Virus record (IMG/VR): IMGVR_UViG_2778261418_000018
Coordinates: 1-36,850 of that record
Source: a virus
Lineage: Duplodnaviria > Heunggongvirae > Uroviricota > Caudoviricetes
DNA: 36,850 nt
Strand: one strand, 5' to 3'
The notes under the pieces: model-generated
What the model saw: only the letters and a program-made list of their open reading frames with translations
Told to the model about the DNA's origin: nothing
The model's database searches: none
Program-made: the position numbers and the translations under genes
Shown: piece after piece, positions 152 to 35,843 of the stretch
Layout: each line of letters opens with the position of its first letter
Numbering within the stretch: position 1 is the first letter of the stretch

Positions 152-227
<76 letters not shown>

Positions 228-33893: not shown

Positions 33894-34097
33894 TTAGCTG
33901 TTAGCCAAAGCGTCTTTTAACATCGCCACAAGGTTTACTTCAGGCTTTTCCATTTTGGCGCGTTTGGGGCGGATAATAATTCGACCGTCAGCCAACATCT
34001 TTTTGCATGTATTAAAAGGGATACCTGTTATCTCTGCATATTTCTGCAGGGATACATAGGGGGCATTCACATGGATATTGATGGTTATACCTGACAT
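33894..34097 (-). CDS. Cox/Apl-like small HTH DNA-binding protein
   Basis: APYVSLQKYAEITGIPFNTCKKMLADGRI resembles P2 Cox IPYQEFAKLIGKSTGAVRRMIDKGKL (as recalled). Confidence 0.55.
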   Translation of the reverse strand: MSGITINIHVNAPYVSLQKYAEITGIPFNTCKKMLADGRIIIRPKRAKMEKPEVNLVAMLKDALANS

Positions 34098-34113: not shown

Positions 34114-34320
34114 TCAGGAAGATTTGTTTTGTTCTTTCTGGGTTAGCTCTAGGCCGCGAAGGAAGATCATGCGCGCCATGTTAGAGGATGAGCGTTGTTC
34201 TTTAGCTGCCATTTCATCAATGACGGCTCGCTCCTCGAGTGACAGCCGAAGTGCCAGTCTTGGACCTGTGGCGGTGTTACGCGGAATGCGTGATCTGGTA
34301 TCGTGAAGAACTTGTTTCAT
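34114..34320 (-). CDS. ribbon-helix-helix type small regulator, first gene of the lytic (early) operon
   Basis: LRLSLEERAVIDEMAAKEQRSSSNMARMIFLRGL fits beta-strand/helix/helix RHH pattern. Confidence 0.5.
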   Translation of the reverse strand: MKQVLHDTRSRIPRNTATGPRLALRLSLEERAVIDEMAAKEQRSSSNMARMIFLRGLELTQKEQNKSS

Positions 34321-34395
34321 AGTGGTATATTGTGATCATCTAATAGCTCGTGAAATCATTTTGGTATCAAAAAAGATACCTGTCAAGGTTTTTGT
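34321..34395. promoter_or_regulatory. immunity switch region with divergent promoters and operator dyads
   Basis: 75-bp spacer between divergent early and repressor genes; dyad GGTATC-AAAAAA-GATACC at 34363..34380, TGATCA palindrome at 34332..34337. Confidence 0.55.
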
Positions 34396-34800
34396 ATGAA
34401 AAATGATATTGGTCAGCGGTTGCGTGAGGAAAGGGAAAGATTGGGACTTAGTCAAGTTGCTATGAGCGACATTGGTGGAGTCAAAAAGCTAACTCAGCTT
34501 AGATATGAGAAAGGAGATAGCTTTCCTGATGCTGCGTATTTGGCAGCGCTGTCTCGTTTTGGCCTTGATGTTCAGTATGTTGTGTTGGGAATTCACTCAC
34601 CTGAAACTTATAACGATGATGAGCAGGAGCTGATTACTCGCTTTCGAGCAGCTTCGTTAGATGTGAAAAACGCCGTGATCGGGGCTTTAAAAGGTGCGAT
34701 CAGTGAAAAGGAAACTCAGCCATCAGGACGTGAGTTAAATATTTCTGGTGGTAATAACCGTATCGCTGGTCGTGACTATAACGAAACTAAGGGTAGGTGA
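34396..34800 (+). CDS. immunity repressor, XRE/CI-type HTH
   Basis: IGQRLREERERLGLSQVAMSDIGGVKKLTQLRYEKG HTH; position upstream of int as for P2 C. Confidence 0.8.
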   Translation: MKNDIGQRLREERERLGLSQVAMSDIGGVKKLTQLRYEKGDSFPDAAYLAALSRFGLDVQYVVLGIHSPETYNDDEQELITRFRAASLDVKNAVIGALKGAISEKETQPSGRELNISGGNNRIAGRDYNETKGR

Positions 34801-34815
34801 TAGTAGGGAGGTGAC

Positions 34816-35466
34816 ATGGCCGTCAACTCAAACGGTTCAAACAATCGCGTTGCTGGACGTGATTTTCACGAAAAGAATATTCAGATAGCGCGATATGATG
34901 GTTCTCATACCGTCAATATCGCAATCCCTTCGAATAATGATGATGACGATCGCCCTTTGCTTAAGGCTCAGCGTAAGGAGTTAAATAGCTTGGTTGCTGC
35001 TATTGCAGAAGCTAGCAATACTGAAGCGTTTATTATTTGGCAAAAAGTACATGCGGAGATTGGTGTAGCTGGTATTGATGATATGGCAGTAAATCAATAT
35101 AAAACAGCGGAGAGTTTTCTGCATGCAATGCTTGAGCGATGTAAAGATCATGATGCCTGTAAGACTCTTGTAAGTTTATTACTACGTAACAGTGAAGACT
35201 GTGGACTTCGACAAAAACTTCTGCGGTATTGCCATATCAATTTCGGTACAGGACGTTTAAACGATCTTACTCGTTCTCAGTTACAGTCTGCATTGTCGTG
35301 GTTAGAGCAACAATCGGTATCAAGCCATACAGAGAATTCGACCTTACCAGAAGTCCGACTTCGTGCTTCAGAATTAATCCGACTTTATCCAAAAGAAATA
35401 ATATTCTTTATCTGCGTAGGGGTTTTGGTAGGCGGTGCCATTTCTAGGGTGTTTTTTAATTTGTAA
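34816..35466 (+). CDS. membrane-anchored protein of unknown function (C-terminal TM helix), lysogenic-operon cargo
   Basis: 216 aa; C-terminus EIIFFICVGVLVGGAISRVFF; N-terminus repeats a motif from the repressor C-terminus. Confidence 0.6.
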   Translation: MAVNSNGSNNRVAGRDFHEKNIQIARYDGSHTVNIAIPSNNDDDDRPLLKAQRKELNSLVAAIAEASNTEAFIIWQKVHAEIGVAGIDDMAVNQYKTAESFLHAMLERCKDHDACKTLVSLLLRNSEDCGLRQKLLRYCHINFGTGRLNDLTRSQLQSALSWLEQQSVSSHTENSTLPEVRLRASELIRLYPKEIIFFICVGVLVGGAISRVFFNL

Positions 35467-35495: not shown

Positions 35496-35843
35496 ATGAA
35501 AGTAAAAAAGGTTCAACTATTAGTTACTTTTTTATCTATGTTTTCTTTTTCCGCCGTCGCAATGCCTTTTAAAAATATTGAACGTGAGAGTTTCAATGGG
35601 GTATGGCCATTTAATACTGATGAGGTTCAATTACAGTGTCTTGATGGTAATCCTTATGTGATGAATTTTGACGATAATAAGTTATATGCGCTTACAGGTT
35701 TGGCTCGAATAAAAGGTAAAACATTTGGTGCGTTACCGTTAGATAACAATAATCCATTTTGGCTAGATAATGATGCCGCCCCAGGGTTAAAAAAGAGTCT
35801 GGGGGATGTCACTAAGGCTGCATTTGATTTATGTGATAAGTAA
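35496..35843 (+). CDS. secreted/periplasmic small protein, YebY (DUF2511)-like
   Basis: Signal peptide MKVKKVQLLVTFLSMFSFSAVA; two Cys; W-FN--EV-L-C--GN-YV pattern resembles YebY as recalled. Confidence 0.55.
   Translation: MKVKKVQLLVTFLSMFSFSAVAMPFKNIERESFNGVWPFNTDEVQLQCLDGNPYVMNFDDNKLYALTGLARIKGKTFGALPLDNNNPFWLDNDAAPGLKKSLGDVTKAAFDLCDK

Follow-up and report, generated by a model that had tools for sequence, protein, structure and literature searches.

Matched terminal motifs shared by prophage repressors and their membrane-anchored neighbours

Introduction

IMG/VR virus record IMGVR_UViG_2778261418_000018 (Caudoviricetes) is a stretch of 36,850 nucleotides (nt), referred to here, over its whole length, as the window. 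Close to its end a gene encoding a prophage repressor is followed by a gene encoding a membrane protein, called here the partner, and the same short peptide is found at the C-terminus of the former and at the N-terminus of the latter. The question raised by this locus is why two neighbouring proteins should carry the same peptide at their facing ends. An earlier note on this DNA had interpreted the match as an old duplication kept by selection, and had suggested that a shared interaction or degradation tag could couple the membrane protein to the repressor. Comparison with many related loci confirms that a widespread pair of matched tags, maintained by selection, links prophage repressors to membrane partners, and a mechanism for this link is proposed.

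A shared peptide at a gene junction

The elements under study are listed below.

34396-34800, plus strand: XRE-type repressor, 134 amino acids (aa)
34735-34785, plus strand: motif copy 1, LNISGGNNRIAGRDYNE, residues 114-130, in the repressor tail, followed by the basic end TKGR
34798-34815, plus strand: repressor/partner junction, in-frame TGA TAG TAG, then the ribosome-binding site GGGAGG 5-10 nt 5' of the ATG
34816-35466, plus strand: partner gene, encoding a predicted Flk-like, tail-anchored inner-membrane protein of 216 aa
34822-34872, plus strand: motif copy 2, VNSNGSNNRVAGRDFHE, partner residues 3-19, after MA

The repressor open reading frame (ORF) ends in ...GRELNISGGNNRIAGRDYNETKGR, and the partner begins with MAVNSNGSNNRVAGRDFHEKN. 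Both ends had been correctly reported in the earlier note, and the coding segments lie inside, or at most 3 nt from, the interval 34738-34878 assigned to them. Aligned by BLASTP, the two proteins share 10 identities and 15 positives over 17 residues (E 3e-5). The similarity exceeds chance, the local BLOSUM62 score being 62 versus 29 +/- 4.7 for residue-shuffled proteins, 2 of 5000 of which reach 62. DNA segments encoding the two copies are identical at 30 of 51 positions (59%), and differ synonymously as had been claimed: four of the 10 identical residues are encoded by the same codon, the remaining six by synonymous codons.

The two copies are 87 nt apart and in the same frame, as are the two ORFs, separated by 15 nt. 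A fusion or read-through product is ruled out. The ORFs are set apart by three consecutive in-frame stops, so that no repressor-partner fusion protein is formed, and neither frame nor spacing is kept elsewhere, as intervals range from -4 to +34 nt in adjacent co-directional pairs, and the genes are convergent in Ralstonia. No in-register direct repeat joining the two segments was found in the DNA. This, along with the synonymous codon differences, also rules out a DNA repeat or gene conversion as the source of the match.

The motif is conserved and co-varies within pairs

Loci were collected by using the repressor as query among diverse viral contigs, mostly Mu-like or P2-like, and repressor tails were compared to the start of the next gene; 11 loci derive from a scan of genome contigs. 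Tail and partner motif recur in many repressor homologues and orthologous loci. The gene pair is conserved: Klebsiella and E. coli carry it in P2-like prophages, Pectobacterium and Gilliamella in Mu-like phages, and many viral contigs have it too. With P2-like and Mu-like prophages taken together, it reaches Enterobacterales, Gilliamella, Pseudomonas-like hosts and Ralstonia.

The consensus (I/V)N(V/I)SGxGNR(V/I)AGRD(Y/F)xExKK fits the tails of repressor homologues in Escherichia, Klebsiella, Salmonella, Yersinia, Serratia, Erwinia, Pectobacterium and Dickeya. The same tail is found also on repressors in which the helix-turn-helix (HTH) half is unrelated to that of the window protein, and many tails finish in a basic cluster (KK, KKNK, RRRKTK). 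Residues 1-20 of the partner are among the most conserved of its family: in 47 sequences, 57-83% identical overall, G7, N10, R11, D16 and E19 never vary, and N4, S5, G14 and R15 hardly do. Essentially all the 120 partner homologues among the matches listed (57-98% identical) start with x-x-(V/I)-N-S-x-G-x-x-N-R-x-(A/S)-G-R-D-(F/Y)-x-E. Motif conservation, retention of the tail on differing HTH domains and saturation of synonymous sites strongly support the view that the peptide has been kept by selection.

Across the phage lineages the shared motif spans 15-25 aa and is rich in N, Q, G and V. It is lineage-specific, yet matched within each pair, as in the loci listed here.

L010: repressor tail IFNGDISGQFAGNQIINNG; partner N-terminus EFNGTAQGQFSSRDIINI
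L105: repressor tail FHGSVGQSVAGNVTNKSGVTFNV; partner N-terminus FHGDVGQAAAGDINNYGVSISLV
L120: repressor tail VFHGAVSGGVAARDIINN; partner N-terminus EFQGNVDGGVAGRDIVNQ
L128: repressor tail VFNSKVSGQVSAENIYNF; partner N-terminus NFYGQVDQVAANNIYNI
L184: repressor tail VIHGDVLGNVIKGNVTMG; partner N-terminus TVNGDVGNVVSGDVTINN

The motifs are enriched in N (2.5x), Q (1.9x), G (1.9x), V (1.5x) and, marginally, I (1.07x), and depleted in L (0.25x), K (0.58x) and P (0.63x). When pairings were permuted, the score of the cognate combinations was never reached. Thirty-one non-redundant pairs score 1424 against 894 +/- 73 (0 of 20,000 shuffles), and a set including one pair per motif class scores 943 against 585 +/- 50 (0 of 50,000). 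Recent gene conversion is excluded, because 107 of the 191 residues identical within 21 pairs are encoded by different codons; nucleotide identity varies from 42 to 81%. An old duplication is plausible as the origin of the two copies, but had the copies drifted independently after one ancient duplication, the excess of similarity observed within pairs would not be expected.

The coupling of membrane protein and repressor thus finds support on the comparative side, as the pair is conserved and the motifs co-vary pair by pair; the physical link between the two proteins is what we infer from these data. The alternative function suggested for the peptide, a degradation tag, is disfavoured, because phages of a single host genus (Pectobacterium, Gilliamella) carry different motifs, and a signal for a host protease or adaptor is not expected to vary in this way. 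Several motif classes are found within one host genus, and phage-specific recognition is therefore favoured over recognition by a host factor.

The repressor

Residues 1-65 of the repressor correspond to an XRE-type HTH, residues 74-105 to two more helices, and residues 106-134 to a disordered tail. Pfam matches to HTH_31/HTH_3 are weak and below cut-offs; PHROG matches (8/4/3) denote a transcriptional repressor. The AlphaFold2 (AF2) model, built on a 59-sequence alignment, features a five-helix HTH, with predicted confidence (pLDDT) above 90 at residues 11-60, about 80-87 at 61-100 and about 40 at 106-134. As in P2-like phages, the gene is divergent from Arc-like and Cox-like genes; the integrase is downstream. 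By HTH domain and gene position the protein is classified as a prophage repressor of the XRE/CI type, predicted to bind DNA. No match to Peptidase_S24 was found in it, and its 134 aa are taken up by helices and disordered tail, so that it is not a self-cleaving repressor of the LexA/CI type. The central helices (ELLxxFRAAPLAVKAAALAAL) are near-constant in repressors across motif classes. Searches by sequence found no solved structure for either the repressor or the partner.

The partner and its variants

Beside motif copy 2, three segments can be recognised in the partner.

34873-34929, plus strand: second, degenerate motif unit, KNIQIARYDGSHTVNIAIP, residues 20-38
34948-35331, plus strand: Flk_N helical domain, residues 45-172
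35365-35460, plus strand: C-terminal transmembrane (TM) tail anchor, residues 184-215 (AF2 helices 184-190 and 192-215; hydropathy window 187-205)

The hydrophobic C-terminal helix vindicates the description of the 216-aa product as a membrane protein. In the AF2 model, based on 47 sequences, residues 1-44 have pLDDT below 50 (about 47-50 at the motif copy) and residues 45-172 about 90; a short linker leads to the TM helix 184-215. Partner homologues keep a Y-P-K-E tract and the hydrophobic C-terminus. The degenerate unit, the pLDDT of which is below 50, is found in enterobacterial partners and is missing from Mu-like partners shorter by 15 aa; the single motif of 194-aa partners aligns with it (alignment A1).

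Pfam family PF27202 (Flk_N) was found on partner homologues, and the NCBIfam Flk model PRK10715 matches residues 37-169 of the partner (E 4.9e-16), with 58.9 bits against an equivalog cut-off of 353. The motif lies outside this homology. The protein belongs to phrog_5825, listed as of function unknown. Pfam matches to ELYS and zf-P11 were below threshold, and have been disregarded as spurious. PADLOC defence models did not match the partner, nor did toxin or defence families in scans of family libraries; in the same scans no NACHT/NB-ARC, Bell or similar domains were found in the pair. The phage regulator or antirepressor families Rha, AntA/AntB and Bro-N have weak, but library-significant, relatives of the Flk_N module as their C-terminal part. 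Homologues retrieved with profile A1 all belong to the same close family, among the matches listed (best 120), and none of 138 family representatives is an HTH-Flk_N fusion.

Most partners consist of Flk_N plus a tail anchor, but the body varies. Those at L121 and L128 are 150-aa proteins with two TM segments, and that at L158 combines a Zn-ribbon with a TM segment. Partners at L120, L123, L127, L130, L139 and L165 are bitopic: after a Flk_N-like start come a coiled coil and a TM segment, and the protein ends in a small module on the periplasmic side, in which two cysteines are conserved (C-x-F/Y-x-G-x-x-Y/F-S/A-x-G ... C) and which may be a sensing domain. The L184 partner is also bitopic, with a larger periplasmic domain. 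All motif-bearing partners encoded by adjacent, co-directional genes have a C-terminal or internal hydrophobic segment, though short tail anchors, as at L010 and L124, score below the hydropathy threshold used; the motif is N-terminal, presumably on the cytoplasmic side.

Some loci depart from this organization. In P2-like prophages of Ralstonia the repressor and Flk-like genes are convergent, with a gene for a Zn-ribbon and TM protein in between (L191 1459-3033, phage YO027_3; L192 1399-2935, phage YO077_2). The motifs still match (tail ...QVINGGSNNVQIGSVKTG, N-terminus ...SITDGNGNVQIGKVVI) and have NVQIG in common; the Flk-like protein lacks a TM segment. A Salmonella enterica locus (GCA_053165235.1; L190 1294-3685) hosts four tandem XRE repressor paralogues of 126, 129, 129 and 121 aa with differing HTHs. 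Three end in ...NVSGxxNRVAGRDYNEK.., while the fourth has a tail with an internal deletion, and a single Flk_N partner starting with ...SNGNKNKIAGRDYHE follows. The set looks like a multi-immunity array with one shared partner. A related, tail-less E. coli repressor provides a negative control, since the genes following it encode neither motif nor Flk_N.

Gene order in the window

A P2-like prophage (Xuanwuvirus) has its immunity and integration end in the last 3 kb of the window, where identity to Escherichia phage 520873 (Peduoviridae, Xuanwuvirus) is 97.9%. The genes flanking the pair are the following.

33894-34097, minus strand: Cox-like gene, with early genes beyond
34114-34320, minus strand: Arc-like gene
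35496-35843, plus strand: DUF2511 protein, 115 aa, with a signal-peptide-like N-terminus, between partner and integrase
35849 to window end, plus strand: tyrosine integrase

No terminator-like site was found between the four plus-strand genes (repressor, partner, DUF2511 and integrase). The slot following the partner is variable, being occupied by DUF2511 in the window, by a 288-aa protein in Klebsiella, by DUF8087 in E. coli and by a 173-aa protein in Salmonella, and is a variable cargo ('moron') site. The partner belongs with the repressor, because it stays beside it while the next slot varies.

The 75-nt gap between the divergent Arc-like and repressor genes contains a perfect palindrome, GGTATCaaaaaaGATACC (34363-34380), which overlaps a minus-strand -35-like TTGACA and is a candidate operator. 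Among deposited phage records the sole close relative is phage 520873 (NC_049344; L001 3516-4128); its Flk-like gene is frameshifted and unannotated and its integrase is split into two coding sequences, which suggests sequencing errors or a decaying prophage. Phage P88, which bears the same genus name, was obtained with mitomycin C, a fact that would bear on inducibility here only if P88 carries the pair.

A proposed role for the matched tags

The motif pair exists beyond chance, is conserved under protein-level selection and co-varies within pairs. As an explanation we put forward, tentatively but ahead of those discussed below, that the two disordered tags bind each other directly and tether the repressor to a membrane-bound regulator of the switch, acting as sensor or anti-repressor. 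Repressor tail and partner N-terminus would be short peptides, disordered alone and prone to form beta-strands, able to recognise each other; the simplest geometry would be like-with-like pairing of strands. Pairing would tether the repressor to the co-expressed, membrane-anchored product of the same operon, and a change in the state of this putative sensor would result in capture or release of the repressor, tuning repression of the lytic (Arc-like/Cox-like) promoter. The motif would work as an address label, making the partner of each phage specific for its own repressor or repressors. Direct binding, strand-pairing geometry, direction of control and effect on repression are what we infer from the comparison of loci.

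Direct cognate recognition is suggested by residues that are identical, rather than complementary, on the two sides, by the occurrence of the motif on unrelated bodies and by the presence of several classes in one host genus; the same observations disfavour a tag for a host factor. A role as sensor or anti-repressor is suggested by the lack of a self-cleavage domain in the repressor, by partners with periplasmic domains fit for sensing, by the distant Flk_N-like modules of AntA, Rha and Bro-N regulators, and by known matched-motif systems, in which the N-terminal copy is carried by the sensor.

Several observations weigh against this proposal. The cognate sequence is the top match in only 7 of the 21 classes, and specificity, clear at the level of motif class, is less so inside a class. 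In the NRxAGRD class, to which the window pair belongs, nearly every repressor tail carries RDY where the partner carries RDF, an asymmetry not predicted by simple like-with-like pairing. At L117 (2001-2414) a repressor with a typical tail, SFHGPVGQAAQGDIKN..., is followed by a gene for an unrelated secreted protein lacking the motif, the partner being either lost or encoded elsewhere. Anti-repression as the outcome is suggested by analogy alone, and identity-type co-variation would be expected also if both peptides bound one phage-encoded third site.

Alternative explanations

A more specific version of direct binding, possible but on balance unlikely, is amyloid-type signalling. A shared cross-beta (beta-arch) fold, nucleated by clustering of the partner, would be templated onto repressor tails, and shut-off of the repressor, hence induction, would be cooperative and irreversible. 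That a BASS/RHIM-like tag in this way passes a signal from a membrane sensor to the repressor, its cross-beta spread inactivating the whole pool and flipping lysogeny to lytic growth, we similarly regard as unlikely. The layout is that of known pairs, with a motif of about 20-25 aa that ends one protein and starts its neighbour, matched within the pair; the bias (rich in N/Q/G/V, poor in L/K/P) recalls BASS motifs, and the pseudo-repeat on the partner recalls HET-s and some BASS. In-register templating requires like-with-like co-variation, both segments are disordered in monomer models, and NVQIG of Ralstonia resembles the RHIM core, which is (I/V)Q(I/V)G. The pair lacks, however, NLR/STAND proteins and Bell/HeLo-type death domains, and is hosted by unicellular Proteobacteria, whereas BASS pairs have been reported only in multicellular bacteria. 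The window motif carries rather many charges (R, R, D, E) and has no G-phi-Q-phi-G core, and a 1:1 beta-hairpin complex would account for the same sequence data. Control may alternatively run in the reverse direction, as in toxin-antitoxin systems: the membrane protein would be an effector of superinfection exclusion or abortive infection, self-assembling through the motif, capped by the repressor tail and freed upon repressor loss. In the lysogenic operon the gene stands between repressor and integrase, a place in which exclusion and defence genes are carried by prophages, as in the analogous lambda cI-rexA-rexB, and downstream motif-bearing partners have a membrane segment. The repressor gives weak matches of the MqsA/HipB type, and HTH-XRE proteins with disordered neutralising tails are typical type II antitoxins. 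Still, we consider this scheme doubtful: no PADLOC defence model fits the partner, which is fixed beside the repressor while the variable slot is the following one; the Flk-like protein of Ralstonia has no membrane segment; and antitoxin tails are not normally similar to the terminus of the toxin itself.

The third-site possibility corresponds to mimicry, in which the tail contacts another repressor or a phage-encoded site, as for cooperativity at operators, and the partner N-terminus is a competing decoy. A mimic tracking its original predicts co-variation of the identity type, and would be kept on partners with unrelated bodies; the repressor, moreover, has no recognisable oligomerisation domain beyond two helices, so that the tail could provide cooperativity. 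Since, on the other hand, repressors are highly conserved outside the tail from class to class, a receptor site in that part would not call for a diversified tail, and the loci include no conserved third candidate encoded by the phage; mimicry is accordingly judged improbable. Recognition of both termini by a host protease, adaptor, chaperone or membrane-targeting factor, leading to joint degradation or localisation, is very improbable. Both motifs are at exposed, disordered termini, basic tail clusters could bind membrane or DNA, and in phage Mu the repressor tail governs degradation by ClpXP. Yet the motif varies within one host genus while being common to related phages across host orders, N-terminal and C-terminal degrons are read differently, and matching within pairs would be unnecessary. 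As to a non-functional remnant, left by gene fission, by recombination joining two modules, or by concerted evolution of DNA through gene conversion, we give it hardly any credit. Closeness of the two window copies in one frame and the mosaic nature of phage immunity regions are what speak for it. It is largely refuted by the low nucleotide identity with synonymous differences, seen likewise in 21 classes, by the lack of an in-register repeat and the variable frame and spacing, by stops precluding fusion and the lack of HTH-Flk_N proteins in the family, and by the persistence of the motif, with strongly conserved residues, in convergent, non-adjacent genes.

Significance

Full-text searches of the literature on motif strings, Flk-like prophage proteins, Xuanwuvirus immunity, and amyloid or RHIM in combination with prophage repressors found nothing relevant. 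No mention of a phage or HTH context was found in the paper describing BASS, in a 2025 paper on a proteome-scale detector of amyloid signalling motifs (ASM) or in an August 2026 review, and no prior description of a tag linking a repressor to a membrane partner has been found. The novelty resides in the setting, as matched terminal signalling motifs are here carried by a prophage repressor and its membrane partner. The pair is widespread in clinical Enterobacterales, with hundreds of contigs for single protein clusters. Relatives are present in 7 of 50,697 deposited phage records. Two of these are deposits of the same E. coli prophage, and the five others come from Ralstonia and bear an 'unverified' flag; all seven are apparently sequence-derived prophages, none a characterised isolate. 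Rarity among deposited isolates may explain why the pair went unnoticed.

Little is known of what makes P2-like prophages, and many Mu-like ones, leave lysogeny when their repressors are small and non-cleavable, and the link described here points to a specific, testable input. The motif classes would represent a specificity code that prevents cross-talk between co-resident prophages. Were cross-beta templating involved, a new, SOS-independent route to prophage induction would exist, with the diversity of motifs insulating prophages that share a cell. Amyloid signalling would then reach, beyond the NLR-based cell-death systems of fungi and filamentous bacteria, the regulation of virus genes in E. 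coli, Klebsiella, Salmonella and Pseudomonas-like hosts, all genetically tractable, and this would be the first amyloid signalling pair outside both NLR/death-domain immunity and multicellular organisms.

Comparison with known systems

Known amyloid signalling pairs (fungal HET-S/NWD2 (HRAM), PP and sigma; bacterial BASS1-10; animal RHIM) similarly have a terminal motif common to the products of neighbouring genes. As in those systems, copies are more alike within than between pairs, as the permutations indicate, and the motif is in an otherwise unstructured terminal extension, with a pseudo-repeat on one side. In BASS motifs Q, N, G, V and I are over-represented, and K, P and L under-represented. 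The G-phi-Q-phi-G signature is a feature of RHIM, PP and BASS3 only; it is missing from the window motif NNR(I/V)AGRD, while Ralstonia has NVQIG and other classes VGQ or VEQVAAG. Instead of an NLR/STAND receptor and a HeLo/Bell/TIR/CHAT effector, the pair consists of a DNA-binding repressor and a membrane-anchored Flk_N protein. It is encoded by phages of unicellular Proteobacteria, and a transcriptional switch is expected, in place of the cell death triggered by known systems. By analogy its mode of action may be that of amyloid signalling, although the pair is not classed under this heading.

Flk (Fluke/RflH) is a tail-anchored protein that faces the cytoplasm and inhibits the switch of flagellar type III secretion. 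The partner resembles it in the homologous Flk_N helical domain, the flexible linker and the C-terminal membrane anchor. It differs in length (216 versus about 333 aa), in a score far below the equivalog cut-off and in being encoded by a prophage beside a repressor; chromosomal Flk, in turn, has a Pro/Gly-rich beginning without the motif. By domain content the partner is classified as a Flk_N-domain protein, not as a Flk equivalog. Klebsiella is non-flagellate. The abundance of the partner family in this genus (754 contigs for one cluster) argues against a role in the flagellar switch.

Type II toxin-antitoxin modules with an HTH-XRE antitoxin similarly feature a small HTH protein whose C-terminal tail is disordered; its gene is directly upstream and translationally close, and the tail presumably touches the partner. 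Here, however, no toxin family matched the partner in the scans and the upstream protein is the immunity repressor; antitoxin tails, besides, do not mirror the N-terminus of the toxin. Antirepressors (Tum of 186, Ant/AntA/AntB, Rha, Bro-N) would have in common with the partner the proposed non-proteolytic inactivation of a repressor devoid of a LexA-like cleavage domain, and AntA, Rha and Bro-N carry a distant Flk_N-like module at their C-terminus. Unlike the partner, known antirepressors are soluble and bear no copy of the repressor tail, and their genes are mostly under SOS-controlled or lytic promoters instead of being co-transcribed with the repressor.

The nearest functional precedent among phages is lambda cI-rexA-rexB. 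The two systems have no sequence or domain similarity, no terminal motif is shared by the lambda proteins, and RexA, a cytoplasmic protein, is distinct from the membrane protein. In both, genes are co-transcribed with the repressor in the lysogen, and one of them encodes a membrane protein; in lambda, RexA binds CI and biases the switch to lytic growth, and RexB modulates this effect.

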